Shown piece after piece: positions 15,785 to 55,533 of a DNA stretch of 64,000 nucleotides. Origin of the DNA: a virus; IMG/VR virus record IMGVR_UViG_3300045988_087402, one strand, 5' to 3'. The notes beneath the pieces were generated by a model. That model was given only the letters and a program-made list of their open reading frames with translations. It had not been told where the DNA came from and did no database searches. Numbering within the stretch: position 1 is the first letter of the stretch; every line of letters starts with the position of its first letter. The translations under genes were made by a program, and so were the position numbers.

Positions 15785-15820
15785 CGAATTTCGGAATACC
15801 TCTCGCCCTTGTGGCCATTA
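15785..15820 (+). repeat. GC-rich element copy A (cgaatttcggaatacctctcgcccttgtggccatta), forward
   Basis: One of six copies of a ~35-bp GC-rich repeat. Solo copy in an intergenic gap, ~65 nt upstream of the ATG at 15885. Confidence 0.85.
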
Positions 15821-15884
15821 AACTGTATTTCAAACTATATAACATACTGTATATCCAATTATATTTAATATTATATTTAATACT

Positions 15885-16748
15885 ATGTTTCTAATTAATT
15901 CAAAACCCAAAGCTCAAAATAAACTAAAAGGTTCTCAAACTGATTATTTTTATAATGATTTTATTTATGAAGCTACTCTCAAATTGGATAGATATATTAG
16001 GCATTTACATTTAGCTTATACTAAACGTATAGAATTAATTAATATAATAGATAAAAATAAAGATTTTTATAATAATATAGGTATTGATATATCTCCTATT
16101 TATAATCCAGATTATTTTGGTACTATAAAATATGATAAAAAACAATATAATTCTAATCTTTTAAAAATGTCTTTTATAAAAAGTTATAACAATATTAATT
16201 ATTATAAGATACATTTTCTTGATAGAAAGATTAAAACATATAATATAATCAGACAGATACCTCGTCAAGTTTATGTTAATCTTCAAAAAGAATATAATTC
16301 AGAAGTTGCATCTTTTATATTAAAAGGCAATTCATTTAGTATAGGTAATGGTTTAGGATGTCTCAAATTAGATGTCTTTAGAAATCCGAGAGGAAATACT
16401 TCTAAAACTATTGACTGGAAGTCTTCATTAAAACTTAAAAAAGAACTTGAAGATGCGGGTTATGAAGTTATGTCTAAAGATAATCCACATGGTATGCAAT
16501 ATGTTCTTTTTTATGATAATACATATTGTAATACATGGCTTCATTGGGAACGACGTAATTCTAAAATTGTTCATAAATGGTATTATAAATTTGTATTCGC
16601 ACAGAATAATAATTACTCTATAACTGCACTTAAATATAATGATATAGAAGAGATATTCAATGATAAACGAATTGGTATAACAGAACGTTTGTCAGCTATT
16701 AATATATACTATCCCGAACATATTAAAAAATTAATGAAATATGAATGA
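15885..16748 (+). CDS. hypothetical protein
   Basis: 287-aa ORF immediately downstream of element copy A. No recognisable motif. Confidence 0.35.
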   Translation: MFLINSKPKAQNKLKGSQTDYFYNDFIYEATLKLDRYIRHLHLAYTKRIELINIIDKNKDFYNNIGIDISPIYNPDYFGTIKYDKKQYNSNLLKMSFIKSYNNINYYKIHFLDRKIKTYNIIRQIPRQVYVNLQKEYNSEVASFILKGNSFSIGNGLGCLKLDVFRNPRGNTSKTIDWKSSLKLKKELEDAGYEVMSKDNPHGMQYVLFYDNTYCNTWLHWERRNSKIVHKWYYKFVFAQNNNYSITALKYNDIEEIFNDKRIGITERLSAINIYYPEHIKKLMKYE

Positions 16749-17484
16749 TTCAGCTGTTTATATAAATAGTAAAGTTCTTATTGCAGAACTTTATAATGAT
16801 TATAATATACAATCTTCCGATTTTATTCAGAGATTTCCAATATGGTGTGCTAATGCTTTAGGGTATTTAAAAATACATCAAGCATATGTTGATAATGAAA
16901 TTAAAGGTGATATTATAAATAATATGTTTCAACTTCCTGATTATTGTCGAGGGGTTGATTCTGTTATTATAAATAACGTAGAAGCTACTTTAAAGTTTAG
17001 TCTTTTTGATAAAGATTCTACTTCAACAATTAATCATATTCCAGCTTTATCTCCAGTTGGAGATTTTAATAAATCTGATATAACAGATGTTATTGAATCT
17101 CCTATTGTAAAAGAAAATAATGTTAAAGATAAACCTGTGTATTGGGTTTCTAATAATTGGATACATACTAATATAAATCATGGAGATATAGTAGTAAGAT
17201 ATAGAGCTATACCTTATGAATATGATAGTGAAACTAATATGACATTTCCTCTTATATATAATGATGAACTTCTTAAATTGGCTATTAAATTATATGTTTT
17301 AAAAATGATGCTTAATCGAGGTTATGTTCATCCTATACAAAATCTTAAAGATAATAATCCTTTTACTAATCCAGCTCTTTATCTTGAACAAATTAGATTT
17401 AAAGTTAGAACTTCTTGTAATAAATTTACTAAAGATAGAAGAGAAATATTAGCTAATATTAATACGACAATGTTATGGAAATAA
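16741..17484 (+). CDS. hypothetical structural protein
   Basis: 247 aa. Start overlaps the upstream stop (ATGA-type coupling). Confidence 0.35.
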   Translation: MNDSAVYINSKVLIAELYNDYNIQSSDFIQRFPIWCANALGYLKIHQAYVDNEIKGDIINNMFQLPDYCRGVDSVIINNVEATLKFSLFDKDSTSTINHIPALSPVGDFNKSDITDVIESPIVKENNVKDKPVYWVSNNWIHTNINHGDIVVRYRAIPYEYDSETNMTFPLIYNDELLKLAIKLYVLKMMLNRGYVHPIQNLKDNNPFTNPALYLEQIRFKVRTSCNKFTKDRREILANINTTMLWK

Positions 17485-20400
17485 AAGGTTTAAACTTAGA
17501 TTCAGCACCTCTTATCTCTGAAAATAAGTCTCTTAGATTTGCTAAAAATATTTCAGTTCATTCTTCTCTACAATCGTATATTAACGAAGCTGGTTTTAAA
17601 CCAATAGGTAATATATATAGTAATACAACAGATATTCTATGTGGTATTATAACTACTAATATAGGATTTGTAGCTTTTATTAAACGTAATACTTTAGGTT
17701 ATATAAATTATTATGAAGTAACAAATGATGAAGTTGTATTAAAAAAGAGTATATATGCTTACAATTTAAATTTCGATGAAAATAGACCTATAACAGGTGA
17801 CTATACATATAATTATAAAAATGAATTAATTATTACATTTACAGAAGGTATTTCAGAGGAAGCTAATGAGACAAGAATTATTAATATAAATAATCCTACT
17901 TCTCGTGTTGAATCTTCAGAAATACATGTTCAATTAAATACGTCCGAAGTTTCTTTATTAAATATAATTCCAGATGTAACATATCCTACTTTAAATTTTA
18001 GAGTATTAAATAGTGGAAGTTTAAAAGCTGGAGCTTATCAAGTAGCTATTAAATATTGTCTTGAAGACGGAACTTATACAAATTATAGTATATTACACAG
18101 AAGTATTATTATATCTGGTAATTATTTAGATAGTATAAAAGTAGGAGATTATGTTATTAAATCAATAGAAGTAAAATTTGCAAATGTAGAAATTAAATAT
18201 AAATATTATAAATTAGCTATTGTATATATTGATGAAGAAAGTCAATTAGCTTATGAAACAGATAATATAAAATTAGAAGGAGATAATACTTATATTATTA
18301 GTAATTTAGAAAATAATACTTCTATATCTTTAGAAGATATATTTGTCAATAAAATAGGATATATAAAAGATACTTGTCATGTTAATTTTAATAATAGACT
18401 TTTAAGAGGTAATGTAAAAACTATAGATTATTCATCATTAGATAATATATTAAAAAATGCAGCAAATAATGCAAAAGTAGATTTAATAAGTTATAATAAA
18501 CAAAGCGAGTTAGATAAGTCTACTACAAGTACTGATGTAGAAGATTATAATACTCCTTATTATATGGGTTATGAAGTTTATTCCATTTATATAGGATTTT
18601 TCGATTATAAAGGTTCTTTAATTAATATATATAAATGCCCATATAAAGAAGGAGATGCTACTACAAATTTTAATACAAATCATCTTATACCTTATTCAGA
18701 TAGAGATGTTGTATATAGATTGAGTGTAAGTTTTCCTACTAATATTATATCTACTATACCCAATACAGTTAAAAGTTTTTGTGTATTTAATGTTGAACAT
18801 AATTTTAATAACAGTAGGATATTAAGTCAGGCTATTGCTTTACGAGATACTGATATTAATATATTTTCAAATGGTCAAAAATATAGTGGACAATTTGATT
18901 CCGAAAGTAAAGTAAGAATATATCCTTTTGAATTTCTATTTAATAATAAAGAATCTATATCTGCTAATATTCTTACTTATGCTCAAATAGATGATACACA
19001 TATAAGTCATGATGGTAATAACTTACCAGATGAATATAAATGTGTTACAGATACTGAAGTAGCTACTTCAAGTATGAATTTAAATCTTAATGATTTATAT
19101 ACTACTGGAATTATAGGTGATACTCGACAAGATAAATTAAAATATATAGCTGCAAATAATAGTCAAGTAGATAATATAGCTGGTGATTCATATTATAGAA
19201 TTGTACATAATAATCCTGTTGAAGGTAGTAATTGGCTTACTGGTACTAATAGATTCGCACTTATATTGTTAGCAAATACTACTGATAATTTATATGTAGA
19301 TGAATATAATCAAACTCTACAAATAGCGAGTTCAATATATTCTATAAATGAAGATGTTAATGCTATTTGTTACGGTGATACAAGAATATCATATTTAACT
19401 CTTAGAGCTACTACTCCAGGAACTGGATTTAAAATAGGTGGTACTTCTGAAGAACAAAGTAACGCACATGTTTGGAGGTGGATATTTACAGTACCTATTG
19501 AAAGTAAATTTAATATAAGAGCGAGATATGATATAACAACTGTTGATAAAGCATATAAATTACATTATGCTACAGATATTAAAGATTTATATCCTTTATA
19601 TGGTCTTAGTTATGAAGTTGATAATGCTATAAATACAAGTATTGGAAAAGGATATTCTTTAATATTTAATGAAAATGGTATTCAAGATTACGTATATTGG
19701 GATGAAATACCGGGTATATTTGAATATCCATCTCGTATTATAAGAAGTGATATATTAAATACTGAAAGTGAAATTCTAAGTTGGAGATATTATAATGCTA
19801 ATGAATATAATGATTTACCTAATAATAGAGAAGGTATAGTTAGTCTTAAAACAGATAATAAAAATCTTTATATTCAACAACGTTATGGACTTAGATTAGC
19901 AAAACTTAGAGATACTCTTAGTGTTACTGGAGATGGAACTTCTTATTTAGGTAGTACAGATATATTTAATATTGAACCTTATGAAATATTATATTCTCCG
20001 AGTGGATATATTGGATGTATAAATAGTTTCGATACAGCTATAAACGTAGCTGGATATTTTGTTTATGATAACGATAAGGGTAAACTATTTAATATATTTG
20101 GAGATTCTGTTTCAGAAATTAGTAATATTAATACTAAAGAATGGTTTTATAAAAATAAATCAAATGATTATATAAATAATCCTTTTATTCATAATGGTCG
20201 ATACTTTAATTATAATGAAGATACTAATGTTTTAACATTTGTAAATAATAAGGATAATAATAAGTTTACAATATCTTTTAATAATAATGTTAAAAAATGG
20301 ATTTCATTTCATGATTATATTCCTTTGTACGGATTGACAAATCGACTCGGAACAATATGGATATTTGATGATAGTAAAATTATTAATAGTATTTATAAAG

Positions 20401-20909: not shown

Positions 20910-20921
20910 CATTTATAAGAT

Positions 20922-25700: not shown

Positions 25701-25726
25701 AAATGAATATAAATTATGGGAAATAA
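22724..25726 (+). CDS. large structural or ejected (cargo) protein
   Basis: 1000-aa ORF. Preceded by aaatttcgattt, related to the shared upstream motif. Confidence 0.4.
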   Translation: MVKIRTGQYNFGQINTPKMADISQIYASVGQQLNKMYYDNRQAYINNIVNPLSQMHANKDDEALLNEKKNAITDGANAFKESDNWHQASDYIYNTVENIITDEGLALINSKYQQRQAYIQSLKDSGWSQQQQDIFLARSDYYSTAVKEENGKVVEGAFNAVNYGTPYDINEQLDKITNIISKAKASSESITNISAEDAVIKGLANVLNVDGETFVSNFLQTTKSTESVSYDDLYNYVSQRLYNNQEYIDYKTTIEQNALFKERFIPDSNNPRGGTLRDLTPELLKDVFNQSYAINALVGTGISLSDLGQLNDNGTFTLNPNMTEDTIKKLTGISAALGFDMVSYLTTGISYSDNVDIDSLYEFLDVAFNNYIDNEFNNYLKNNNISLDNPNIEAYKENWYLNLRTQNAIQSEIHANADSLADLMSFTRTKVVYDLISNNSVYTTAYKHKKELETKYTTEGFTTASTLPDTPVNVGSTKSIQARKTELGETLAQIVNDSRSIPITENMYKVLNTMYGIEPGDVSSINKLDLSEILNNPDINLSDKEREAFQRLHRNNQIEAQIKGEIDNYDRELSDVYNILKDDVSNLDYTSQFIINHNITNYEDYKEYMAEFPNSGQAPINYIYPGNEIPYIAKDITDRKSRILTEDEFNKLQQSLTEHAAEIYKKKTGEDLNYTTKGVVIFNPTGVSRQYLDNAIDAIGTSSDSWVLENVQGTKKFNKNIGLSLANNPELVRLLLTHAPTSGSGTIPNIKDVGIDAKETGLPDKTYDIRYNIVYDNNDFAETGQAKQKILCTALDVNGAPLGSFTISRDISKEALLNMIQSDYNNIRTSQIYDNNISGENVLSESRGKIVSQAASHMFSFTPVTGVKNTTTAGSTLNLQARAQQLEVGTGINGDGEKLYVQSNLIIPTTQQNIGNAYFEISKESLGRGEYGYKVVMVQPDGKGNWVDASMLDWGDERLNHNFYTLSRKGMPVKNINDAFAELSDYLLSIGYQMNINYGK

Positions 25727-28700
25727 AATAGGAACTCCTGTAAGTTTAAATCCGGTAACTGTTGAAGATAAACCTTCGACAGTTATCGGAACTCCTGTTA
25801 AAATAAGTAATCCAACGGGAGGTCAATCTTTTATGCAAGGATTTATGTCAACATCTCCTCGAAATTTTGATATATCTTCTTATCAAAAAATGATGAATAA
25901 TGTTGATACAAATCTTCCTTTAAATATTCTTAATGAAGAAAGAGCACGTTATCAAAGTACAGGTCATTTAATAGGTAATTCTCTTATTCAATTAGGAGGT
26001 ACTATAATAGGGGATATTATATCTGGAGTAGGAGCTTTATTTAATTTTAATAAAGTTGGTATAGAATTTATCAAAGATATTGTAGATACAAATTATCAAC
26101 CGGATTGGACTACTATAATGAATAAAGGTGTTAGTGGTGCTATTCAAGATTTTGGTAAGTCTATAAGTGAGGGAAGTAGAGAAATAGCTCCTATATATTT
26201 AACTGAACGTGCTCAACGCGGTGGTCTTGCTGGAGGTATGGGAGATAAAACTTGGTGGGCTGCTAATTTTCCTACTATAGGTAGTGCTGCCACATCTATG
26301 ATTCCTATTATGGGACAAATGAGAGCATTAAATTATATAGGTAAGTCATTATCAAAGGTTGGAAATGTTTCTAAAATAGGTAGAGGAATTAACACATTAG
26401 GTCGTACAATAACTAATAATAAAGTACAAGCTACAATAGGTACTCTTTATGGTGCACATTTGGATATTATGCAAGAAATAGTATATGACTATGATAATCA
26501 ATTTCAATATGCTAAAAATCTTGGATATTCAGATGAAGAAGCTCGTGAATTTGCAAGTATTTATGCTTCTACTGCTTATAAAGATGCTTGGGCTTATGGA
26601 ATACTTTTTAATGCTATAGAATTAAATAGTATATTAAAAGGTACAAATAGATTTTCAAAAACTATATCTGAAGTAGATAAAACTATTAATAAACATATTC
26701 CTGATATATCACGTCAAGGAACTAAGTTTACAGGTATTTCAGAAGAAGTTGTTGATTTATCCAAAAAGACTATATTTCGTGCAACTTTAGGAAAAAGTTA
26801 TGATTTCTTTAAAACTTCTATTTCAGAAGGTCTTGAAGAAATGCGTACAGATATAGCTTTAAAAGAAGGTGAATTAGAAGCTAAAAAATATCTTGATATT
26901 TATGACCCATTAAATGATATGACATTTGCGAAAAGACTTTATTCGCAAGTTAGTGATGCTCGAAATTGGGATAGTTTTTTATGGGGTATGGCAGGAGGTG
27001 CCGTAATGTATGCTGGAAAAGGTATATTAAATAAAATTCGTATGCCAGATTCATATAAAGATTATAATAAAAAATTATATGAAGGTATAATGAATAGTTT
27101 ACAAGATACTATAAATACTATAGCTACATTTGATGGAGATTTAAGTATAAGAACCAGTTTAGAAGAAGACCCTGCAATAACTATATTAGCTCCTTTATTT
27201 AATACTTTAGGAGCTGCCAACGCAATAGTTTATGGAGAAAGATTATTAGATGAACTTGGAACTATGACTTCTGAAGAATTAACTGCTGTTTACGGTTCTG
27301 ATAAAACAGAACTTATAAATACTCTTCGAGAAGAATTTAAAATAGCTAAAGATATATATGTTAGAAATGCTGATATAACTTATAATAGCAAAGCTGATGA
27401 TTATATTCAAAATGAAATGGCAGGTTTAGAGTATTTACATAATTATTATACTCGTAAATTTAATGAGATAGAAACAGAGATACAAAGAATTAAAACTCTA
27501 AACGATGATTTAGATATAAAACGAGATAATGAACTTAAAGAATTAGATGGTAGATTATATAAATTAAATTCTGATAAAGAATCTCTTTTAAATTCTATTA
27601 AATTTAATGAAGCCAATTCTAATGCGATAGATAAATTTGTTAATAGTAAAGAAACTTCTGAAAAATTAAACGATTTAAAACGCGAAAAAGAATCTTTAGA
27701 AAAAGAGATAAAATCTATTAAACAAACTATTAAATCTAATAATACTCGTAATGATAATATTCGACGTAATTTAGATAGATTGAATAGTTTATTATTAAAT
27801 TCTGAAACTGATACTGAAAAAGAACAATATAAAACTGAGTTAAAACATAATAAAAATAAACTTAGAGATAATAGTAAAAATATAGATAATTTATATATTA
27901 AAGAACAAGCTTTATCTGGAATTGAAACTTCTATTGCATATTTAAATGGTGAAATAGAATCTCAATTAAAAAGAAAAGAATTTAATACAAAAGCTATCGA
28001 AAGAGCTAAATCTACAATAGATATGATAGATGCTCAAATAGATAAATATAAAGAATCAAGAGGTGATATAATTAAACGTTATGAAGAAATAAGAAAAGAT
28101 TATGATTCAATTCCGAGAGTTAAAAATATTACTTTAGAGGATTTAACTAAGCTACGAGATAATATATTTAAACAACTTTCTAATTATGGAAATATACAAG
28201 ACCATAAAGAAGAATTTGCTAATAATCTTAAAACAGCTGTAGAATCTATAATTGATATTGAAACTAAAGAATTAGAACGTAAAGAATATAAGATTGAAGA
28301 AGATAAGAAAAATACAGAATCTGAAATTAAAGAAGAAGATGAATTTAATAATCGTCCTACATCTATAAAAACAGTTTTAAATGAAGGTGAATATATAACT
28401 TTAACTATAGATGATTTAAATAGGATTAGAAGTTTTATAATAAAAGGTAAGAAATATGATTTAAATAAAATTTATAATATACGAGGAAAAGATGTAGAAA
28501 TAATTAATATAAAAGATGATAATGGAATTATAAAAGTTACTACACCAGAGGGTGATATTCTGGCTGTAATATTTAATATGTTATCATCTCGTGATAATAG
28601 TGGATATTCAAAGACAATTTATAATGCGATAGATAGATTTACAAAAAGTAATTTTGAAAATGATTTTTATGATACATTAGTTGATTTAGATAAAGCATTA

Positions 28701-31700
28701 AATAATGATAAATTTAAAAAGGCTTTTACTTTTAAAGTTTCTAATATAGATATTATAAGTATAAGAGGTAGAGCTATAGAAGGAATTATTAATAATCTAA
28801 CTAAATATGCAAATGATAGAATTAATGAAGATAATCAGAAATTATATGATAGAGTTTATAATGAATTAAATTCCATATATGCTCAATCTGTATATGACGG
28901 AGAAATTCTTTTAATAAAAGATTATTTATATGATATATTTTATATAAATCTTCCTGCTAAATCTGCTGAAATAAATAATCAATTTAATAGTGAATATTTA
29001 GATAAATTTATAGATAATTTAGCTAAATACATAGAACGTTATATTTCTATTGATTTTACTAATGATAAATTTAAGTTTAAATATAATACAAATATTAATG
29101 AATTTATTAATACATTAGAGATATATTTTGATGAATTTGAAAGTCTATTAGCTAATAAGTTTTATACTCAATATACTCTTCAAGATTTTAGTGATTTAAA
29201 TAATGAATTAGCAAATAAGTTTAATTCTTTTAAAGAACAATTATTAAAAGATTATAATAAACAGCAAGAAGTTAGGAAAACTGAATTAGATAAAATTAGA
29301 GCTGAATTAGATACAGAAGAATCTGCAAATAAAGACTTTCTAAATGCTATAATAGATTTTATATCTTTTAGTAAATCTACTGATTCAAATATAGAAGATA
29401 GAGAAAATATATCTAAAAATGATTATAGATATTATGTAACTCCTGATAGATTAAATGCATATATCACCTTAGCAAATGTTATATCTAAATGGAAAGTATC
29501 TAATTCTTTTAATCCTAATAGAAAACTTTCATATACGGATATTTTATCTATTATATATAATACTCCGGAAGGTATTGAAAAAATAGATGATATTTATAAA
29601 TCTTTATGGAGAGCTTTAAAAGCTGCTTCTGATATTGATTCTATAGAATCTCTAAAAGATGAAATAAAAGAGAATGTTCCTAAAGAAAATTATAAAGAAT
29701 TTTTTAATATATTAGATACTATAGTAAATAATATAGTTCCTCCTATACGTTCTATCGAAAGTAAATATCTTGATAAATTTGATAATATTACTTCTGCTTA
29801 TATTAAAGATTTTAAGAAAACACATTTTCCAGAAAGAATCGAATATGGTACACATGAAGGTGTTCCTTTAAGTAATAATATAATATTCGATTCTCTTAAA
29901 TCTGCTATGGATTCTAAATCTAATAAAATAGAACATTTAATAAAAATCGAAGATAAAACTTATTCTCCTACCGAATTAATAAATATTTATAAAAATATTA
30001 CAAATGGTACACCTATAGCTGCTAAATATGATATTGAATCTAATATTGTAACTCTTACTGTTACTATTAACGGAAATACTGTACCTATTGGTAGTATTGG
30101 ATTATCCGACCACTTGAAAATCGGCAATTTAAAGGCATATAAAGAACTTAAAAATTCCGGTGGAACACTTATATACGACAGTTTTTTGGGTACGTCAGAT
30201 GGCTTAAAATCGACCTTAATAAGCCTATTACAAACGGTATCAAAAAGTCCCACTACATACGACTTAATACGTGAATATTTTAAAACTTATTTAAATGCTA
30301 AGACAAATAATACTACGACAGATAGCCTTACTATTGATATACTTAAAGATATTATAAGTAAATTAGATAAAATAGGTACACATAAAAATGCTGGAGGACA
30401 TTCTAATATAGTTAACGCTCTTATACAACTTTCTAATTATAATACGGAGAGAGAAGATACAGATGAAATAAATTATGAAGATTTATTTACTATCATTCAA
30501 CCTATGTTTTATGGTAGACTGAATATTATTGATTCTCTTAATAATAATTATTATGATTTAAAAAATAGTTATGAAATATTTAATAGTCGTGTTGGAGAAA
30601 GATTTAATCAATTAGAAACTCTTAGAAAAGCTATAATTAATAATCCTGATGCACCACTTATTATAACATATATAGGAAAACCTCGTATTAATTATAGTAA
30701 TGATAGACGTATAAAAAATAATATAAATGATTCTATTCAAAAAGATATAGAAGTTAATGGAAAACCTACTGTAGATATTATAGCAAGACAATTAACAAAT
30801 AATAGATATATTGTATCTTCATTAACCAGAAATGAAATAGTATCTGATGATGCTGCAAAGCGTACAATATATGACCCTAACAGAGGATTTGATTTTTATG
30901 TTAGAATAAAGTCGAATGGAACTGATACAGGTTTTAGTTATGTTCCTATTAAACTTACTACTGTAAATTCTGATACTGCATATTCAAGAGTTAGTAAAGA
31001 ATTTATTGAAGATGCTATTCGACAAATAATAACAGATAGGTTTCTAACTAATCTTTCTACAAGACAATCTAAAGATAATGTAATTGTTTCAGATTTAGTT
31101 AAGAAAGAATATAATAAAAAATATTTAAATCTTATTGATGATATAAGCGAAGCTATTATAGTTAATAATGGTGAAAAATCTAAGTTTCCTTGGTTTGATA
31201 CAAGTACACTTTATGATAATAAAAAAGAAGGTTTTGTAAGTAAAGATATTAAATTTATTATTAATAAGGACGATGAACATTCTTATGCTGTCTCTCTTAG
31301 AATTAATTATGAGCATGATATTGATGTAGATTCTCCGTCTATAATAAAGAATATAAAACTTACAGTTTATGATAGTAGAGAAAATCGTATAAAAGGTACT
31401 CCAAAAGATATATTTACTCAGACAGAATTATCTAAATACGGATTTGCTAAAAGAGATAGTAAAATAAATAAATCGGATGTTATTACATATAGTAAATCAG
31501 ATAAAAGTAAAACTATAACATTTGATGTTAATAATGATAATATAGAAAATTTTATTAAAAGTGGACTTATAGATATGTTAGTTGGTAATATGGTTCGTAA
31601 TGTAAAAACTGTATTAACAAATGGTTCATATACATATACTTCTAAAGCTACAGGAGCTTCATTTGGAAAATCATATAATGAAATAGATAAAAATAATATA

Positions 31701-33245
31701 ATAAAAGGAGATAATAATTCTAAAGTATTTAAGGGAACTTATACATCTCCTATTTTGGAGTGGGGTAAAGAAAAAGGTATATATAGTGGTAAAACTACTT
31801 TTGATTCTATACAAGATTTTTATCTTGATACAAAAGCATTAGTTACAAATATAATACCTATTAGAGATAATGTTACAAATGAAGTTGTAACTGATTATAA
31901 TCTTTTTAATGATTTACCGAGAATTTATGTAAAGATTGATAATCCTAATGCAGAAATTGAACAAACTAAACCTATAGAAACTATAAAAGAAGAAGAATTA
32001 AGTAAGAGTGTAAATATTATTGAAAATATTGCTTCTGCTAATGTATATTCTGAAGATAATTTTATTGATAAATTGAATAATGAATATGGTTTAACAAAAG
32101 ATACTTTTATAAATATAGGATTTATTAAAAGAAATACTACAGATGAAGTATTTAATATAATTAAAGATTTTATTGTAGAAACTGTAGATTCTGGTAAACC
32201 ATTTCCTTTAATTATAGTACATAATGTAGAAGATTATATTCGTATATTAAGAAGTCAAGGTTATATTGATGCATCTGATGATGAATTAACTAAAAATTAT
32301 AATATGATGGGAGCTTCTTATAGCGGTTATACATCAACTCCTTTTATATTAGTTAATCCAAAAATATTTAATACTACTAAACGAAATATTGGTAGTGGTA
32401 TATTTCATGAAATTATTCATCATAGAGTTGAAAAAGATACGGAAAATGATGTTATAACTGATGATGTAAAAGAGGCTTTAAATGATATAGTTAAAGATTT
32501 AGTAGAACGTAAAGAAGAAGTATTACGATATGATATAGAAGATTCTATTAAAAATAGTATATCAAAATCTTTAAAAGTAGCTTGTTATAATTCGGATGGA
32601 ACTATAAATGAAGATGTTGCATATCACGAACTCTTAGCTTATACATTATCTAATCCAAATTTAGCTGGTTATTTAAATAATATATATTATAAAGAAGAAA
32701 CTAATAGACCGAGTGAATCTATTTGGAAAAGAATTATTGATAATCTTCTTAAATTATTTGGTATAAAAGTTAATAATAATAGTGTACTTCAACAAATACA
32801 AAATGCTTTTGATGAAGGTTTTATGTTTATTGTTAATAGTGTAGAAGTTGAAAATAATGAAAATGCTACAAGCAAACAAACTTCGGAACGCCCTCCCGCC
32901 CTTGTGGCCAATAAACAAGCGTCAATAGATGACATTGATGTTACAACTCTATCGGATGAAGAATTTATGAATAATGGCGATGAATTGTTTTTACGAATAG
33001 ATTTCGCAATTTCTGATGAAACTACGAATGAAATTTCTGATGAAACTACGAATGAAGCTATAGAGCCAAAAGATGACACTTCTATATTGGCCACAAGGGC
33101 GGGAGGGCGTTCCGCTGTTCTTCCGACTAATTCTATAAATTCTTCTGACAATCGAAATAAATTATTATCTTTAAATATTGATACTAATATTATTGATTCT
33201 TTTAAGGATTCTTTTACTGATAGTTCTAATTTAAAAATATGTTAA
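25716..33245 (+). CDS. giant virion cargo/ejection protein with HExxH metallopeptidase-like motif
   Basis: 2509 aa. Long K/E-rich coiled-coil region. HEIIHH at nt 32406-32423. The C-terminus carries an in-frame inverted-repeat element (32884-33114). Confidence 0.5.
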   Translation: MGNKIGTPVSLNPVTVEDKPSTVIGTPVKISNPTGGQSFMQGFMSTSPRNFDISSYQKMMNNVDTNLPLNILNEERARYQSTGHLIGNSLIQLGGTIIGDIISGVGALFNFNKVGIEFIKDIVDTNYQPDWTTIMNKGVSGAIQDFGKSISEGSREIAPIYLTERAQRGGLAGGMGDKTWWAANFPTIGSAATSMIPIMGQMRALNYIGKSLSKVGNVSKIGRGINTLGRTITNNKVQATIGTLYGAHLDIMQEIVYDYDNQFQYAKNLGYSDEEAREFASIYASTAYKDAWAYGILFNAIELNSILKGTNRFSKTISEVDKTINKHIPDISRQGTKFTGISEEVVDLSKKTIFRATLGKSYDFFKTSISEGLEEMRTDIALKEGELEAKKYLDIYDPLNDMTFAKRLYSQVSDARNWDSFLWGMAGGAVMYAGKGILNKIRMPDSYKDYNKKLYEGIMNSLQDTINTIATFDGDLSIRTSLEEDPAITILAPLFNTLGAANAIVYGERLLDELGTMTSEELTAVYGSDKTELINTLREEFKIAKDIYVRNADITYNSKADDYIQNEMAGLEYLHNYYTRKFNEIETEIQRIKTLNDDLDIKRDNELKELDGRLYKLNSDKESLLNSIKFNEANSNAIDKFVNSKETSEKLNDLKREKESLEKEIKSIKQTIKSNNTRNDNIRRNLDRLNSLLLNSETDTEKEQYKTELKHNKNKLRDNSKNIDNLYIKEQALSGIETSIAYLNGEIESQLKRKEFNTKAIERAKSTIDMIDAQIDKYKESRGDIIKRYEEIRKDYDSIPRVKNITLEDLTKLRDNIFKQLSNYGNIQDHKEEFANNLKTAVESIIDIETKELERKEYKIEEDKKNTESEIKEEDEFNNRPTSIKTVLNEGEYITLTIDDLNRIRSFIIKGKKYDLNKIYNIRGKDVEIINIKDDNGIIKVTTPEGDILAVIFNMLSSRDNSGYSKTIYNAIDRFTKSNFENDFYDTLVDLDKALNNDKFKKAFTFKVSNIDIISIRGRAIEGIINNLTKYANDRINEDNQKLYDRVYNELNSIYAQSVYDGEILLIKDYLYDIFYINLPAKSAEINNQFNSEYLDKFIDNLAKYIERYISIDFTNDKFKFKYNTNINEFINTLEIYFDEFESLLANKFYTQYTLQDFSDLNNELANKFNSFKEQLLKDYNKQQEVRKTELDKIRAELDTEESANKDFLNAIIDFISFSKSTDSNIEDRENISKNDYRYYVTPDRLNAYITLANVISKWKVSNSFNPNRKLSYTDILSIIYNTPEGIEKIDDIYKSLWRALKAASDIDSIESLKDEIKENVPKENYKEFFNILDTIVNNIVPPIRSIESKYLDKFDNITSAYIKDFKKTHFPERIEYGTHEGVPLSNNIIFDSLKSAMDSKSNKIEHLIKIEDKTYSPTELINIYKNITNGTPIAAKYDIESNIVTLTVTINGNTVPIGSIGLSDHLKIGNLKAYKELKNSGGTLIYDSFLGTSDGLKSTLISLLQTVSKSPTTYDLIREYFKTYLNAKTNNTTTDSLTIDILKDIISKLDKIGTHKNAGGHSNIVNALIQLSNYNTEREDTDEINYEDLFTIIQPMFYGRLNIIDSLNNNYYDLKNSYEIFNSRVGERFNQLETLRKAIINNPDAPLIITYIGKPRINYSNDRRIKNNINDSIQKDIEVNGKPTVDIIARQLTNNRYIVSSLTRNEIVSDDAAKRTIYDPNRGFDFYVRIKSNGTDTGFSYVPIKLTTVNSDTAYSRVSKEFIEDAIRQIITDRFLTNLSTRQSKDNVIVSDLVKKEYNKKYLNLIDDISEAIIVNNGEKSKFPWFDTSTLYDNKKEGFVSKDIKFIINKDDEHSYAVSLRINYEHDIDVDSPSIIKNIKLTVYDSRENRIKGTPKDIFTQTELSKYGFAKRDSKINKSDVITYSKSDKSKTITFDVNNDNIENFIKSGLIDMLVGNMVRNVKTVLTNGSYTYTSKATGASFGKSYNEIDKNNIIKGDNNSKVFKGTYTSPILEWGKEKGIYSGKTTFDSIQDFYLDTKALVTNIIPIRDNVTNEVVTDYNLFNDLPRIYVKIDNPNAEIEQTKPIETIKEEELSKSVNIIENIASANVYSEDNFIDKLNNEYGLTKDTFINIGFIKRNTTDEVFNIIKDFIVETVDSGKPFPLIIVHNVEDYIRILRSQGYIDASDDELTKNYNMMGASYSGYTSTPFILVNPKIFNTTKRNIGSGIFHEIIHHRVEKDTENDVITDDVKEALNDIVKDLVERKEEVLRYDIEDSIKNSISKSLKVACYNSDGTINEDVAYHELLAYTLSNPNLAGYLNNIYYKEETNRPSESIWKRIIDNLLKLFGIKVNNNSVLQQIQNAFDEGFMFIVNSVEVENNENATSKQTSERPPALVANKQASIDDIDVTTLSDEEFMNNGDELFLRIDFAISDETTNEISDETTNEAIEPKDDTSILATRAGGRSAVLPTNSINSSDNRNKLLSLNIDTNIIDSFKDSFTDSSNLKIC
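32884..32912 (+). repeat. GC-rich element copy E (cggaacgccctcccgcccttgtggccaat), left arm of an intragenic inverted pair
   Basis: 29-nt perfect inverted repeat with 33086-33114. Variant of the element family (cgccctcccgccc instead of cacctctcgccc). Confidence 0.85.
33009..33056 (+). repeat. 24-bp tandem duplication (atttctgatgaaactacgaatgaa x2) inside the intragenic inverted pair
   Basis: Read directly. Encodes ISDETTNE x2 in the giant ORF. Confidence 0.9.
33086..33114 (+). repeat. GC-rich element copy F, right arm (reverse orientation)
   Basis: attggccacaagggcgggagggcgttccg is the exact reverse complement of copy E. Confidence 0.85.
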
Positions 33246-45874: not shown

Positions 45875-46207
45875 TCAAATAGAGGCATTATAAAAAGGTA
45901 TGTATACACGCTCTTTTATCAAGTAATAAAGATTTCCAAAAGTAAAAGAACTATGAATATTTTTCTCACTAAGTGTAACATTAAAAGTCTTTGCTACATC
46001 ACATTTAAATTTATAAATATCATCATAATTAATAAAACCTTGTAATACAACTTGTATAGGTTCTTCAAAATCAATTATAATATCATTAACATTTGCATCT
46101 TTTATATAATCTTTTAATATATGTTTTACAACAATTTCAAATCGTTTTCGATTTAAAGTTTCATTTGTAGTATTTATATCAGTATTTAAATCAGCATTTA
46201 ATGTCAT
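45875..46207 (-). CDS. small hypothetical protein
   Basis: 110-aa ORF with non-degenerate composition, first gene of the minus block after the convergence hairpin. Weak. Confidence 0.25.
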   Translation of the reverse strand: MTLNADLNTDINTTNETLNRKRFEIVVKHILKDYIKDANVNDIIIDFEEPIQVVLQGFINYDDIYKFKCDVAKTFNVTLSEKNIHSSFTFGNLYYLIKERVYIPFYNASI

Positions 46208-46242
46208 ATTAATTTCGTTAGAATTTATAATAATTATAAAAT

Positions 46243-46277
46243 AAATTTCGGAACACCTCTCGCCCTTGTGGCCATTA
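46243..46277 (+). repeat. GC-rich element copy B (aaatttcggaacacctctcgcccttgtggccatta), forward
   Basis: Left arm of a convergent inverted pair with copy C. Confidence 0.85.
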
Positions 46278-46334
46278 TACTGTGTATAATACTATGTAAC
46301 ACTATAAGTTTAATAGTTACATCCGAATTAAATA

Positions 46335-46390
46335 CAGTATTAAATACAATATTAAATTCAGTATTAAATACAATATTAAATTCAGTTGTT
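46335..46390 (+). repeat. 24-bp tandem repeat cagtattaaatacaatattaaatt x2 (+ partial) between copies B and C
   Basis: Read directly. Confidence 0.9.
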
Positions 46391-46429
46391 ACTTTATTAT
46401 ATTAAGTGCTAACTATAGAGACATTTGTT

Positions 46430-46466
46430 TAATGGCCACAAGGGCGAGAGGGTGTTCCGAAATTCG
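46430..46466 (+). repeat. GC-rich element copy C (reverse orientation: taatggccacaagggcgagagggtgttccgaaattcg)
   Basis: Reverse complement matches copy B except for one extra c. Confidence 0.85.
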
Positions 46467-46554
46467 TATTGAATTTATTATCTTTTCTTTCGTTACTATT
46501 TATAATAATAGGGATAACTATTTCACAATAATTATCCCTATCTTTATTTAAATA

Positions 46555-47271
46555 TTATTTTCCGGTACTTCCGAATCCACCATTTCCTCTATCAGTTTTA
46601 GTTAATTCTTCAATGCTTTTAACTTTTTTAAATTCGCATTGTTCTACTTTGGCAAATACACCTTGTGCTAACCTTTCATTTGGAAATATTATATAACTAT
46701 TAGGAGAAGGATTATTTATAATAATTCCTATATTACCACGATAATCACTATCAATAGTACCAAAATGGGCTATCATATTAGTTTTAGCTCCAATACCACT
46801 ACGAGGTCTTATCTGAATTTCATATCCATCAGGAATTTGAACAAAGCATCCAGTATTAATTATATTATGTGAAAATGGTAATATTATATTAGCTACTTCT
46901 ATATTGTTGTCATCCATATAATCATATAGAGTACCATACTTTATACCACCATTTTTTTCAGCTGTTTTGTTAATTTCAGATAATTTATTATTAATAGCTT
47001 TTTGTATAGATTTTATATAATTAATACTACTTATAATTGAATAAGAAATATCATTATCTATAAAAGGTATTAATTCTTCTATAAATTCTTTAGCAATATA
47101 TTCTTCAGTACCGTCAAATGCATCTATCTTTTTTATATCATTAGGAGTAAAAACTTGACAATTATTTGATGAACTAATAGTAGTAAACAAATCAAAACCA
47201 GAAGCACCCGAAGTTTTATATTCGGGTACTTTTCCAGTTTCAGAATAGATTTTTATAATCTGTTTTTCCAT
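46555..47271 (-). CDS. dut: dUTPase with ~80-aa insertion between motifs I and II
   Basis: Motif I SGASGFDL, motif II RPRSGIG, motif III GTIDSDYRGNIGI, motif IV ERLAQG, motif V RGNGGFGSTGK. 238 aa against a ~150-aa core. Confidence 0.8.
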   Translation of the reverse strand: MEKQIIKIYSETGKVPEYKTSGASGFDLFTTISSSNNCQVFTPNDIKKIDAFDGTEEYIAKEFIEELIPFIDNDISYSIISSINYIKSIQKAINNKLSEINKTAEKNGGIKYGTLYDYMDDNNIEVANIILPFSHNIINTGCFVQIPDGYEIQIRPRSGIGAKTNMIAHFGTIDSDYRGNIGIIINNPSPNSYIIFPNERLAQGVFAKVEQCEFKKVKSIEELTKTDRGNGGFGSTGK

Positions 47272-49462: not shown

Positions 49463-49465
49463 GTT

Positions 49466-50471: not shown

Positions 50472-50688
50472 TTTCTATATTTATTTCTTGTCTTTCAAAT
50501 TGTCCAGATAAAACACGTTTTGCAGCTTCTAATTTAATAGCTTTTGAAGTATTAGAATCAATATTTTTAGAACATATTCTAAATGCTTCTCTTGCTACTA
50601 AATCATTTCCTCGTGTCTTACCATATTTATTATTTATTATATCAAGTAATTCATTAAGACTTTTATTTTCTATTTCATCTCTTGTCAT
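50455..50688 (-). CDS. hypothetical protein
   Basis: 77-aa ORF. Confidence 0.25.
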   Translation of the reverse strand: MTRDEIENKSLNELLDIINNKYGKTRGNDLVAREAFRICSKNIDSNTSKAIKLEAAKRVLSGQFERQEINIENDNIH

Positions 50689-50694
50689 ATTAAT

Positions 50695-50952
50695 TTAATT
50701 CTTATTTTCATCTAAATGTTTATGATAATTATATAAAGTTTCAAATGTATCATTATATAGACTTGCATCAAAATCTTTATATAAAACTTTTATATGTTTA
50801 TCTAATATATCTGTTATAGAACTACAAACTTTAATTTCTTCCAAAGTTACTTTAGAATTATCTTTAAGGAACAATTCTATATTTTTGTCACTAACTTTAA
50901 TATCTTTTAAAGCCTGTCGAATAATCTCTTTAAATTCAGCTTTAGAAATCAT
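50695..50952 (-). CDS. hypothetical protein
   Basis: 85-aa ORF. Confidence 0.25.
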   Translation of the reverse strand: MISKAEFKEIIRQALKDIKVSDKNIELFLKDNSKVTLEEIKVCSSITDILDKHIKVLYKDFDASLYNDTFETLYNYHKHLDENKN

Positions 50953-52135: not shown

Positions 52136-52195
52136 ATGTTCATCCGTATAAAATAATTGATTATAAGGCTTTAAAATCGGTATTAATTATCGGAC

Positions 52196-52516
52196 TTATT
52201 TAAGTCGTTTAAGTCTATATAGGACTTGTAATGTAGCTTCATCAATAGTATCTACAATAGCAATTTGAACATTTTCTACTAAGACATTTCTTATATTCTT
52301 AGTTGAAATTCTAAATTTATTAAAATAATCTATTATATTAGTAGGTTTATCTGTTTTAGGAACAGTAATATTTATATCTCCATATAAGGCTATTGAAGTT
52401 TCAGCTAATGAATCAACTGAAGCATTCATTTGTTCTATAAATTGGTCAAGAGCTATATGTTGAGCATAAGAAGCTGTACCTGTAACATCCCAATGATATA
52501 ACTTTGCACCTCCCAT
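52196..52516 (-). CDS. hypothetical protein
   Basis: 106-aa ORF. Confidence 0.3.
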   Translation of the reverse strand: MGGAKLYHWDVTGTASYAQHIALDQFIEQMNASVDSLAETSIALYGDINITVPKTDKPTNIIDYFNKFRISTKNIRNVLVENVQIAIVDTIDEATLQVLYRLKRLK

Positions 52517-52608
52517 TACACTACGGCATTCACCTATATACTCACCAATTTTATTCTTATCTACACTCTTTAATTTATATCTGCCATATTAGTTTCATTT
52601 TTATTAAA

Positions 52609-53958
52609 TTATTCGTAATCTCTTATACCAATTACATTAGCATGAAAAGGTATTCCGTTTTTAGTACGTTCATAAAACTTTATAGTAGCAAATTTACCTT
52701 TATAATAATCTTTATTATTTAAAATATTAAGTTTATCTTCTACTGTACCAGTTCCATTACATTCAAACATTAAATCATTTATATCATTCAATAAAGTATA
52801 AACTATAGTAAATCCAACTTTATCATTTGGATTTCCTTTTGATTCTATATCTACAATTTCAAATTCAGAATCTTTAAACTTTTTAAGTTTCATCATTGTT
52901 TTAGGTCTTTGTCCAAAACAATAATCAGCTTTTTTATTTCGTATTACCGCACCTTCAAAACCATTTGATATAGCACATTCCATATAATTTATAGATTCCA
53001 TATCATTATTAGCTATATCACTATTAAGTACAATAATATTATAACGATTCCAAAGATAATGTTGATTTAATACTTCGTTTATAAATATTCTTCCAGCACA
53101 CATATTGTAAGAAGAATGATTATTTTTATTAATATAATCTTCCCAAATTTTAAATCGTAATTTATCTCTATCTTCGTTATTAACATCTTCTATACTTAAA
53201 TCAAAATTAACAAATGTTAATAATTCATTAAGAGGATTAGCTATATTTCGAGCAGCACCACCAATAGTTGTAACTTTTTCATCTTTAATATATAATTCAC
53301 CATCAAATACTATATTTTTATATTGTGGAAATTGACTATAAAGATGATTAAATACTTGTTCTATATATGGAACATTGTAAACGAGACCTTCTTTAGTTTT
53401 AATTACAGAAGTATATCTTTTATCATTAATATAAATTCCTTTAGAACTAAATAAATCAGTAGGAGTATATTCTTCTAACATTATTACAGCCCTAACTCCA
53501 TTAATTTTAGGTTGTATAATACATGGATAATTAAATGTGTCAATTTTAAAAGTTTGACACTTCATAGGTTTTACACAATTATTAGCATCAGTATTATATT
53601 TAGGAAGAATAGATTCTAAATGACCTATAAGATAATTTAAATCATTAATATTTTTAACATCTATATTTTGTTCTTTTATTATAGTATCTAATGATTTATA
53701 TCCTTTTTTAATTTGACGATTATATGCACTTTTAAGTTCATTAGCAGCTTGTTGATAAGGAGTTGTCTCGTTCTTTTTACCTATATTTTTACCTTTTATT
53801 TTATCACTATAAGTAACAATAGGATTATCTGTATTTAATTCTCCATATGTATATTTTAATCTACAATTTTCTATATCTTCTCCGGCAGATATTACACTAC
53901 CTTTCCAATACATCACTTTACCATTAATATTTCTTTTAAAAAGAACAGTAGTTTCCAT
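52609..53958 (-). CDS. ATP-dependent DNA ligase (nucleotidyltransferase superfamily)
   Basis: Motif I QPKINGVRAV (KxNG; Asn where Asp is usual), motif III FDGELYI, motif IV FEGAVIRNK, motif V KLKKFK. Confidence 0.6.
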   Translation of the reverse strand: METTVLFKRNINGKVMYWKGSVISAGEDIENCRLKYTYGELNTDNPIVTYSDKIKGKNIGKKNETTPYQQAANELKSAYNRQIKKGYKSLDTIIKEQNIDVKNINDLNYLIGHLESILPKYNTDANNCVKPMKCQTFKIDTFNYPCIIQPKINGVRAVIMLEEYTPTDLFSSKGIYINDKRYTSVIKTKEGLVYNVPYIEQVFNHLYSQFPQYKNIVFDGELYIKDEKVTTIGGAARNIANPLNELLTFVNFDLSIEDVNNEDRDKLRFKIWEDYINKNNHSSYNMCAGRIFINEVLNQHYLWNRYNIIVLNSDIANNDMESINYMECAISNGFEGAVIRNKKADYCFGQRPKTMMKLKKFKDSEFEIVDIESKGNPNDKVGFTIVYTLLNDINDLMFECNGTGTVEDKLNILNNKDYYKGKFATIKFYERTKNGIPFHANVIGIRDYE

Positions 53959-53964
53959 AATATT

Positions 53965-54450
53965 TTATTTAGATTCTTTCTTATTAGGAGCTTCTTTAAC
54001 TACTATACAATATTTTGGCATATTTATTCTATTCATTAAACAGTGCCAACTACCCCAAGCTGTTCTATGGTCACAAACATCTTCTAATCCAAGTTCTTTT
54101 GCACACCAACATTTATAACTATTTCTAACTACATTTCTAATTTCATCTTTAATACTTTTCGGACGAGGTAATATACTTTTTAAAAGAGCTTCTGTTTGTT
54201 CTCTATATTCTTTTTTCATTTTATCTGGAGCATTCCAAACTTCAGATTCTCCGTGAATAATTATATCTTGCGGACGTATATCATATTTATCTACAAAAGC
54301 AGCAATATGAAAAGAATTAGAACATCTTTCAGCTTCTTTAATTATAGATTTATATAAATATTCTTCTACTGAATAAAGATTATATTCATTACCTTTAGAA
54401 TCAATATTTATAAGATATATACCAAGTATACCTTTCGTTTCTCTATTCAT
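53965..54450 (-). CDS. Cys/His-rich hypothetical protein
   Basis: 161 aa. The C-terminal CWCAKELGLEDVCDHRTAWGSWHC cluster suggests metal binding. Confidence 0.3.
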   Translation of the reverse strand: MNRETKGILGIYLINIDSKGNEYNLYSVEEYLYKSIIKEAERCSNSFHIAAFVDKYDIRPQDIIIHGESEVWNAPDKMKKEYREQTEALLKSILPRPKSIKDEIRNVVRNSYKCWCAKELGLEDVCDHRTAWGSWHCLMNRINMPKYCIVVKEAPNKKESK

Positions 54451-55493
54451 ATCTTTAATATCTTTTTAATTATTAAATCGAATTGTTCATATACTTTATT
54501 ATATCCGTATTTTTTTACCATATCTGTTGGGTCTTTAGAATCATATCCTAATGTAAAATATATAGGATGTATTCCGAGAGTTTCTTCTAAATGAATCATA
54601 CCTTTTATTCCAGCACTATCATTATCGAATAAACTATATATATTGTCTTTATTAGTATATTTACTTATTACTGTATGTATATCATTAGGTATATTTACTG
54701 TTTCTGATGCAGCAGATAATATCTGTATATTTTTAATATTTTTTTCAATAATAATTCTATCAAATAAAATCTTATCTTTTATAGATTTTATTATAATAGT
54801 ATAATCTGCTTTTTTTATATTATCTATATTCTCTATAGGAACTCTATTATTTGTAATAAATCTTATATCTTTTTTAGTCCTAAAAGGAAAATATAATTTT
54901 ATTTTATTCGGATTAACTCTATAAGCATAACAAGGGTCACAACCTGTATATCTATAAGGAGACATACGACCATTAATATAATAACTATCTACAACTTTTA
55001 CATTTTTATTAAAATATTCTTCATTAATTCCAAACTGTTCATAAAATATATAATTTAGACGATTTGGTTTACGAGAATTATATTCAATTATAGTATTATT
55101 TTTAGATAATTCTTTTTCTTCTCTTTCTTTAGCTATTATAATATCTGCATTATCTTTAGTACATGTAACAATTATGTCACTACATATATCTATAAATCCT
55201 TGTCTGCTTCTACAATCTTTATTTATAATATTTCCTACAACTTCAAATATATCTCCACTATATCTATTATCTCCAAAATCTCTTGCAATAAGTTTATCGT
55301 TATAATATTTAAATTTTAGTGAAGGACTTTTTTCATATCTATAAGAATTAAGTATTTTACAATTATCTATAATACTAATTCTTATATCTTCAATACTAAT
55401 TCCAAGATATTTACTAAATACAAGTTCTTGATTAATATTCTCGATAATATATTGTTTTAAATCCATAATATCTTGAAATATTTTTAGATGCAC
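54447..55493 (-). CDS. DnaG-like primase (zinc-ribbon + Toprim)
   Basis: YRYEKSPSLKF resembles the DnaG zinc-binding HxEKTPSF. C-terminal FDNDSAGIKG is a Toprim DxDxAG motif. The start may be GTG or a downstream ATG. Confidence 0.55.
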   Translation of the reverse strand: MHLKIFQDIMDLKQYIIENINQELVFSKYLGISIEDIRISIIDNCKILNSYRYEKSPSLKFKYYNDKLIARDFGDNRYSGDIFEVVGNIINKDCRSRQGFIDICSDIIVTCTKDNADIIIAKEREEKELSKNNTIIEYNSRKPNRLNYIFYEQFGINEEYFNKNVKVVDSYYINGRMSPYRYTGCDPCYAYRVNPNKIKLYFPFRTKKDIRFITNNRVPIENIDNIKKADYTIIIKSIKDKILFDRIIIEKNIKNIQILSAASETVNIPNDIHTVISKYTNKDNIYSLFDNDSAGIKGMIHLEETLGIHPIYFTLGYDSKDPTDMVKKYGYNKVYEQFDLIIKKILKI

Positions 55494-55497
55494 AGTT

Positions 55498-55533
55498 TAA
55501 TGGCCACAAGGGCGAGAGGTGTTCCGAAATTCG
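55498..55533 (+). repeat. GC-rich element copy D (reverse on plus strand; forward relative to the minus-strand primase gene)
   Basis: taatggccacaagggcgagaggtgttccgaaattcg. Abuts the primase start codon. Same orientation relative to the downstream gene as copy A. Confidence 0.85.

Follow-up and report, generated by a model that had tools for sequence, protein, structure and literature searches.

A discrete family of GC-rich elements in a crAss-like phage

The stretch of DNA analysed here (the window) comprises 64,000 nucleotides of the IMG/VR viral record IMGVR_UViG_3300045988_087402 and contains six copies, A to F, of a GC-rich element of ~42 nt, situated beside or within genes that include those for a tail ring protein, dUTPase and primase. 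A 3-kb test stretch of the window is 94.4% identical to the uncultured phage cr127_1 (MT774393.1, 83,412 bp; Crassvirales, Crevaviridae, Kahucivirus intestinalis), which carries ten copies, namely the window's six and four more. A preliminary description of the window, made from its sequence alone, had listed the six copies and considered three explanations for them: a mobile element resembling miniature inverted-repeat transposable elements (MITEs), which it favoured, a site recognised by a protein of the phage, for instance a promoter, and a structured RNA family.

A profile hidden Markov model trained on the ten cr127_1 copies matched the window exactly six times (E 8e-12 to 2e-16), and the match that ranked next had E = 2.7. 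When the window was searched with the 36-mer consensus, allowing at most 3 mismatches, copies A (15785-15820, +), B (46242-46277, +) and D (55498-55533, -) were recovered, whereas shuffled sequences gave 0 matches. The core CGCCCTTGTGGCCA was present without mismatch at each of the six places claimed for the copies (15804, 32897, 33088(-), 46261, 46433(-) and 55501(-)), against an expectation of 0.01 from shuffles. The family of six is thus real and discrete, without weaker members, and its copies lie where they had been reported. The element is also, as proposed, the most GC-rich recurring string of an AT-rich genome: the GC content of 2-kb segments of the window ranges from 0.22 to 0.34, and the top recurring GC-rich 12-mers of cr127_1 are all part of it. 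An assembly artefact, which the preliminary description had allowed for, is ruled out by the presence of the same copies in ~30 independent assemblies. We found no account of such elements in the literature on crAss-like phages that we searched.

Six of the ten copies face the next gene start: A, C, D, E and the copies at cr127_1 positions 11910 and 82340. The copy at 11910, a seventh one, is located just beyond the end of the window, upstream of a small gene and the DNA polymerase operon; the one at 82340 precedes the gene that opens the long structural operon. The other two extra copies of cr127_1 are found antisense within the N-terminal part of the uracil-DNA glycosylase (UDG) gene and, at position 1767, at the edge of a 1.4-kb unannotated stretch. 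The solo copies A and D had been described as facing the next gene start, which holds for the gene at 15885 and for the primase gene, except that the primase start given at 55493 is a GTG and the real ATG lies near 55469. Copies B/C and E/F form the convergent inverted pairs that had been noticed, which span 225 and 231 bp between their outer ends, and each pair does enclose a 24-bp tandem duplication (46327-46386, 2.5 copies; 33008-33056, 2.0 copies). The second pair is in frame near the C-terminus of a 2509-aa open reading frame (ORF), just 5' of the gene for the 4134-aa virion RNA polymerase, which bears GWDFDIDT at residue 1481 (DFDID motif). At operon starts the element is placed 15-65 nt 5' of the start codon, after terminator hairpins. 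The window hairpins beside C and D have no T-run and were therefore missed by a terminator scan; relatives have a hairpin plus T-run at the places that match both of them. The coordinates of all these features are collected in Table 1.

The positions of the copies are fixed within the species

The conspecific set consisted of ~30 independent human-gut contigs, obtained from one metagenome scan and two viral-contig scans. For all 69 copies in this set, 150 nt on either side were mapped onto cr127_1, and every one of the 69 mapped to the same set of ten positions, without change of orientation and with the interiors of the pairs unflipped. These assemblies contained no empty site, no new site and no presence/absence polymorphism. 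The flanks of B/C (…AAAATA | … | CGTATT…) and of E/F (…AACTT | … | CTGTT…) contained no direct repeat and no target-site duplication, and no transposase is annotated in cr127_1. The element is fixed, not mobile. The preliminary description had named identical positions without polymorphism, combined with transcript ends at the copies, as an outcome that would speak against mobility, and the positional half of this is what the conspecific assemblies show.

Scanning of viral contigs with the 14-mer core and with the pattern CGGAA-N7-11-CCCTTGTGGCC returned mostly chance matches in GC-rich contigs, and after filtering the true copies were confined to three conspecific IMG/VR contigs. Among the matches listed for genome contigs, the one true match was a fragment of the same phage, the others being due to chance. 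Across the viral, metagenome and genome collections, the element was found only in this phage species, among the matches listed. The fragment among the genome contigs, URQK01000116.1 (3.4 kb), spans the site of the cr127_1 copy at 1767 and is binned in the metagenome-assembled genome 'uncultured Mollicutes bacterium UMGS1248', a binning that could be a weak hint at the host or an artefact of low GC content.

The element consists of two conserved boxes and a variable spacer

The element is bipartite, with box 1, TTTCGGAAC, and box 2, CCCTTGTGGCCA(W)T, separated by a pyrimidine-rich spacer of 8-10 nt. Within the species both boxes are near-invariant, and the C/T spacer is the most variable part. 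In alignments of conspecific copies, 2 of 190 columns were variable in the boxes (TTTCGGAA(C) and CCCTTGTGGCC; 1%), 170 of 2419 in the flanks (7%) and 25 of 103 in the spacer (24%); the boxes differed from the flanks with p = 4e-4 and the spacer from the flanks with p = 1e-7 (Fisher tests), the flanks in this comparison being mostly coding. The spacer shows 1-nt indels, yet it remains pyrimidine-rich. This distribution of variation indicates that the boxes are under selection and that the exact sequence of the spacer is without constraint.

A structured RNA family, the third of the explanations considered at the outset, is not supported as far as single copies are concerned. Taken singly, the copies are without secondary structure (-3.1 to -3.4 kcal/mol, z = +0.4 to +0.9), and a search of Rfam gave no match at gathering thresholds, the sole match with E <= 1 being unrelated (dinG RNA, 8111-8197, E = 0.76). 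Folding of the pair intervals, which the preliminary description had suggested, did give long hairpins, of -96.5 kcal/mol (z = -11.8) for B-C and of -97 kcal/mol (z = -9.8) for E-F, but this is expected, because any inverted repeat folds in this way. An E/F hairpin maintained by strict co-variation of its arms was also considered and failed, the arms differing at 2-3 nt in several strains. Since the family is discrete and its single copies are unstructured, recognition of the DNA by a protein is likelier than recognition of an RNA fold.

Related lineages have different elements at the same places

With primase homologues (38-65% identical) we retrieved the syntenic loci of six other lineages, in which the sites at the genes for primase, dUTPase, UDG, DNA polymerase B (polB) and Thy1 were compared; the E/F, A and 82340 sites were seen within the species only. 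None of the six lineages carries the sequence of the window's element. Five of them have a pyrimidine-rich GC element of their own 15-30 nt before the primase ATG, just 3' of a hairpin plus T-run, and these elements end in CCCCTACC(R)G or CCCTATCC. Counting the window's own, the site upstream of primase is therefore occupied in six of seven lineages. Other sites are shared as well. In lineage L263, dUTPase is followed by a convergent inverted pair formed by the lineage's own element, the inverted arm being 31 nt ahead of the small gene; the interior of this pair repeats TACTGTATTTAA, as does that of B-C in the window. In lineage L265, copies of its own element precede polB and, in inverted orientation, Thy1, and the element also follows dUTPase.

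In every one of the five lineages for which the retrieved sequence includes the UDG gene, that gene carries the genome's own element in antisense orientation, always in the loop bounded by the CxxC motif and motif A (FIGxxP). In these five lineages, the UDG-internal and primase-upstream copies agree at 32-36 of ~42 nt when taken from one genome and at 17-23 when taken from different genomes. The amino acids of the loop are ATRARGVPKS, ADRGEESQS, AGRGVGCTHTTRA, SRIADVKK and GRGRGWRHNHS in the different lineages, which indicates that the loop sequence follows the overlapping DNA element and is wholly different from lineage to lineage. Since the positions are fixed and the sequence changes in concert within each lineage, we inferred that the element is a recognition site co-evolving with its reader, a pattern that transposition cannot yield.

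For the E/F site, a related-locus search returned only conspecific contigs, tblastn with the C-terminal 509 aa of the 2509-aa ORF found only cr127_1, and a homologue search with that C-terminus and the DFDID region of the RNA polymerase found only conspecific fragments. Searches of viral contigs for elements of the L265 and L263 types gave one distant contig and chance matches.

Table 1. Elements and associated features; positions refer to the window unless another genome is named
Feature	Position	Strand	Context
Copy A	15784..15825	+	Solo, co-directional; follows the crAss tail ring protein 2 gene (15056..15748) and precedes the 287-aa gene starting at 15885
Two period-12 tandem arrays (AAACTGTATAAC x2.8, ATTATATTTAAT x2.8)	15820..15890	+	Between copy A and ATG 15885
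Copy E	32876..32918	+	Co-directional, in frame within the 2509-aa ORF 25716..33245; ~335 nt 5' of the virion RNA polymerase gene start 33249
Period-24/12 tandem duplication, E-F interior	33008..33060	+	Encodes ISDETTNE twice
Copy F	33081..33122	-	Inverted partner of E, in frame; 29-nt arm 33086-33114 is the exact complement of E 32884-32912
Copy B	46241..46282	+	Inverted relative to the minus-strand genes; 35 nt 5' of the ATG of the 110-aa gene 45875..46207(-)
Period-12/24 tandem array (ATTAAATACAGT x5), B-C interior	46327..46386	.	Minus-strand unit reads TACTGTATTTAA
Copy C	46426..46467	-	Co-directional with the minus-strand genes; 3' of the dUTPase gene 46555..47271(-) and its hairpin
Hairpin AGGGATAA ... 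TTATCCCT	46510..46539	-	After the dUTPase stop, ahead of copy C; found by reading the sequence
Copy D	55493..55534	-	Solo, co-directional; ~25-30 nt 5' of the primase ATG (~55469)
Hairpin ATAGTGGCG ... CGCCACTAT	55543..55576	-	After the stop of gene 55602..56426(-), ahead of copy D; found by reading the sequence
Period-12 array ACAACTGTCTTT, at least 4.8 copies	63944..64000	-	In cr127_1 directly after the seventh copy
L263 primase-upstream element			AATCCAATTACTGACTTTCTTCTCCCCTATCCGCCAGC
L265 primase-upstream element			CGTGTAGTGTGCGTCCAACCTCCTCTGCTACCGGCAGTG
L298 primase-upstream element			CTCCCATCTCCTCCCCTACCAGG
UDG genes (family-4-like)	cr127_1 11244-11852; L263 1801-2397; L265 2257-2808; L295 2486-3043; L298 2343-2909

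A proposed regulatory site at operon starts

The fixed positions, the conserved boxes and the concerted change favour the second explanation in the preliminary description, a recognition site for a phage-encoded protein, for example a promoter. We propose, giving it about an even chance, that the element is a cis-regulatory site recognised at the starts of operons, probably in the role of a promoter or promoter-proximal site, and that it co-evolves with a putative phage factor. A phage-encoded, fast-evolving DNA-binding factor would read both boxes, and the candidates for such a reader would be a specificity factor of RNA polymerase, an activator or the phage's own polymerase. The readout would be the initiation or control of transcription, with the site acting as a promoter or in promoter-proximal control of the primase operon, the DNA-polymerase operon, the first structural operon, a block of tail genes, the virion RNA polymerase gene and the small gene that follows dUTPase. 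As one factor must read every site, all copies of a genome would shift together when lineages diverge. The inverted and coding copies might serve as antisense promoters, as paired looping sites, or as partners of the forward copies in RNA duplexes.

Several observations weigh against a regulatory site of this kind. Inspection by eye revealed no consistent -35/-10 and no Bacteroidetes -33 TTTG/-7 TAnnTTTG sequences at a fixed distance from box 2, and in the window, matches to consensus promoters were no commoner than in shuffles (182 vs 166 +/- 12; 132 vs 147 +/- 13). A Pfam search of 20 early and replication proteins of cr127_1 found no sigma factor and no helix-turn-helix regulator. Three of the ten copies (B, F and the one in UDG) are antisense to local transcription, at positions conserved in relatives, and three are within coding sequence, where they are also conserved, which a simple directional promoter would not predict; together with the flanking period-12/24 arrays, the antisense and coding copies are left unexplained. 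The L265 element almost fills the intergenic space, so that the leader would be at most 10 nt long. Lineage L296 has no GC-rich element in its 15 kb, and its primase ATG is located 8 nt after a terminator-like hairpin (L296 5947-6012), indicating that a promoter is not obligatory at the primase junction and that the hairpin there must be read through. A variant in which GGAAC would be the -35 element of an extracytoplasmic function (ECF) sigma factor was dropped, since box 1 is not conserved between lineages.

Alternative explanations

The conserved boxes around a variable spacer could also mark the site of a phage-encoded site-specific nuclease or nickase, i.e. a hot spot of recombination or replication initiation, at which the spacer would be cut, template-switch repair would create the nearby tandem and inverted duplications, and gene conversion would keep the copies alike. 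The 1-nt indels of the spacer between invariant boxes would fit such a site, as would the occurrence of copies in both orientations and within genes, and the B-C module is an extended imperfect palindrome of the sort an inverted duplication would give. The three top-scoring tandem arrays of the window (period 12 or 24) all adjoin copies, of the 33 arrays 7 are no more than 160 bp away from a copy (permutation p = 7e-4 for the number and p = 1e-5 for the summed score), and the copy number of the arrays varies among strains; the array-bearing stretches beside elements are 15820-15890, 33008-33060, 46327-46386 and 63944-64000. However, the variability of the spacer may simply be the neutral rate, given the mostly coding flanks; the siting just 5' of start codons after terminators is not predicted; and no candidate nuclease is linked, the sole homing endonuclease seen being in a polB insertion that is absent from cr127_1. 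We therefore consider a nuclease site rather unlikely. Much the same low probability attaches to a function at the RNA level, in which the forward (C/U-rich) and inverted (G/A-rich) copies, on one transcript or on two, would form duplexes of 29-35 bp, serving as RNase III sites or in antisense control of leaders. The strong folding of both pair intervals is in line with this, in five lineages the leaders of other operons have an exactly complementary counterpart in the UDG mRNA, and E and F of the window have pair-specific variants in common. Apart from the fact that inverted repeats always fold well, such duplexes are difficult to reconcile with the uncompensated differences between E and F at 2-3 spacer positions in several strains, with four solo copies that have no nearby partner and with the absence of a cis partner for the UDG copy in three of five lineages; moreover, forward copies would not be transcribed if they were promoters.

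The pairs could alternatively flank invertible segments (invertons), one of them bearing a promoter 5' of the small gene (B-C) and the other recoding the region near the C-terminus of the 2509-aa virion protein (E-F). Both pairs have inverted arms of 29-35 bp around interiors of ~150 bp, and inversion of 32884-33114 keeps the 2509-aa ORF open, which occurs for only 1.6% of segments of the same length in window genes and 3.7% in that gene; all six strain haplotypes retain the open ORF upon inversion, with a length of 231 nt. Yet no flipped interior was seen at either pair in any assembly, although a consensus would hide minor subpopulations, and no recombinase is annotated in cr127_1 or was found in the 26 proteins scanned, a host enzyme being possible. 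Solo copies have no place in such a system, and with ten interchangeable sites facing both ways the genome would be scrambled. Of three short pairs that p-crAssphage's own repeat forms within genes, just one stays open when inverted and the other two gain stops, so that survival of the ORF is no general feature of such pairs. We regard invertons as quite improbable. In its inverted form the E-F module (32884-33114; antisense ORF 32789..33151) would replace an acidic stretch of 58 aa by a Ser-rich, hydrophobic one. Least credible is the reading favoured in the preliminary description, a non-autonomous, MITE-like element with terminal inverted repeats and internal repeats that proliferates in the phage genome, to which we assign only a very small probability. 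The pairs do resemble terminal inverted repeats, with arms of 29-35 nt around AT-rich, repeat-bearing interiors and a total length of 225-231 bp, but the paired form exists at only two of the five window loci, and E-F is translated. The lack of polymorphism, new sites, target-site duplications and an annotated transposase, described above, is contrary to transposition, as is the restriction of the element to this phage species among the matches listed. In distant lineages these positions, among them that of the UDG copy and that of the pair following dUTPase, hold different elements, each matching the other copies of its own genome. A MITE is contradicted on three defining features; the sequence comparisons indicate that the inverted GC-rich pairs only look like MITEs and are fixed, selected sites.

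Comparison with known systems

Phages of the T7 group (T7, T3, SP6 and K11) have 23-bp promoters in ~10-17 near-identical copies per genome at conserved gene boundaries, each lineage having its own version that co-evolves with the protein reading it, and some of these promoters lie within the 3' end of the upstream gene. The element resembles them in being a long repeated sequence at fixed gene boundaries, with a lineage-specific version that changes in concert, and differs in being bipartite with a free 8-10-nt spacer, in the antisense orientation of three of ten copies and in a genome that encodes no single-subunit RNA polymerase. Within the crAss-like phages, phi14:2 and the beta group have an extended tripartite middle/late promoter motif, present also upstream of the virion RNA polymerase gene; some of its matches are in coding regions and a few are antisense, and it is sigma-70 -35/-10-like and transcribed by the host RNA polymerase (bioRxiv 10.1101/2020.03.07.982082). 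Compared with it by description, not by sequence, the element is likewise an extended conserved motif with the virion RNA polymerase gene among its targets and with some coding and antisense copies, but it has no readable host-type hexamers, occurs in both orientations and is bipartite with a free spacer. In its logic the element is closest to the T7-group promoters and, among crAss-like phages, to the extended motif that phi14:2 and the beta group have at their middle promoters.

Several families of bacterial repeats have a similar look. The Correia elements of Neisseria, which are MITEs, have inverted arms of ~26-35 bp around a short AT-rich interior (100-230 bp) and affect the expression of neighbouring genes. 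The inverted arms and the short AT-rich interior are shared; unlike Correia elements, the element shows no target-site duplication, insertion polymorphism or dispersal, solo arms are common, and positions are fixed across lineages with different arms. Repetitive extragenic palindromic sequences and bacterial interspersed mosaic elements (REP/BIME) of enterobacteria are GC-rich, species-specific repeats of ~35 nt, single or in inverted pairs, located by intergenic terminators, and their units are imperfect palindromes. The element, too, is GC-rich, species-specific, single or paired and found beside terminators, but its single units are unstructured, three copies are coding and no RAYT-type transposase accompanies it. 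Invertons and intragenic invertons of gut Bacteroidales have inverted repeats around a segment of ~150 bp, upstream of genes or in frame. Both pairs match this layout, and inversion of E-F keeps the ORF open, but no flipped orientation was seen, no invertase gene was found and the same repeat also stands solo at operon starts. The likeness to REP/BIME, Correia elements and invertons is in appearance only. The GC clusters of yeast mitochondria and the palindromic elements of Rickettsia are palindromic and polymorphic in position; like them, the copies are short GC-rich islands in an AT-rich genome, some in frame, and unlike them, they are asymmetric and fixed in position over deep divergence.

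Other repeats and features of crAss-like genomes

Recurring GC-rich repeats were also observed in two crAss-like phages of another family than the window phage. In cr271_1 (MT774394.1), at least 17 copies of TCTTCTACGGGGGAGC (AGCTCTTC-TACG-GGGGAGCT) are genic and intergenic, for example at 14927, 31904/31979 and 86384, and in only one of its orientations does the motif fold into an 8-bp hairpin closed by a UACG tetraloop (-11.3 vs -5.0 kcal/mol). In the prototype of the group, p-crAssphage (BK010471.1), there are 31 copies of CCATCCTC(T/C)ACGGGG(R)GT (CCTC(T/C)ACGGGG), 10 of them intergenic and 21 genic; the genic copies occur in all three frames and both orientations (examples at 6022, 10169, 22901/22928 and 58515/58727), and the orientation alternates strictly across ten consecutive copies (30490-58727). 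In the literature searched, no description of the p-crAssphage repeat was found. Nothing comparable was present in crAss001.

The DNA polymerase B gene of the window is split (60006..61130 and 62461..63648) by a 1.3-kb insertion (61131-62460), whose ORF 61486..62175 on the minus strand is a GIY-YIG homing endonuclease. At this place cr127_1 has only a 620-bp gap without the endonuclease ORF, though all element copies are present, and L263, L265 and L295 have a single uninterrupted polB of 841-863 aa. Rfam found no group I or II intron in the insertion.

In cr127_1, the copy at 1767 faces a 1.4-kb stretch without an annotated gene (1781-3228), which is rich in short tandem repeats and contains the near-palindrome TCCGAAGAATATTCGGAAGA twice. 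Long intergenic regions are reported to be highly transcribed in phi14:2 (bioRxiv 10.1101/2020.03.07.982082), and the unannotated stretch of cr127_1 may be analogous to them. Inside the structural module of the window, in the 146-nt gap after gene 7496..8389, a hairpin with a 20-bp stem (8469-8512) is followed by a T-run and is probably a strong terminator; no copy of the element adjoins it.

Implications for crAss-like phages

The crAss-like phages are among the most abundant viruses of the human gut. To our knowledge, one marine model phage apart, little has been learned about how they time the expression of their genes, and most are without a cultured host. A discrete signal at operon starts would help to annotate transcription units in the genomes of uncultured crAss-like phages, and the element could be used as bait for finding the protein that reads it. 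The comparison of lineages corrects a tempting misreading of inverted GC-rich pairs in an AT-rich phage as MITEs, and the UDG loop would be a natural case of a coding sequence whose amino acids follow an overlapping DNA signal. A broader and unlikely idea is that the crAss-like phage's own transcription machinery reads the element, which would work by pairing sense with antisense copies, one of them lastingly embedded in antisense orientation in the UDG loop, and that the repeats of p-crAssphage and cr271_1 are versions of one Crassvirales-wide system. If this were true, the element would represent a previously unrecognised kind of phage expression signal in a group for which a promoter of the phages' own machinery has so far been undefined, and the protein sequence of the UDG loop would be dictated by a DNA signal.

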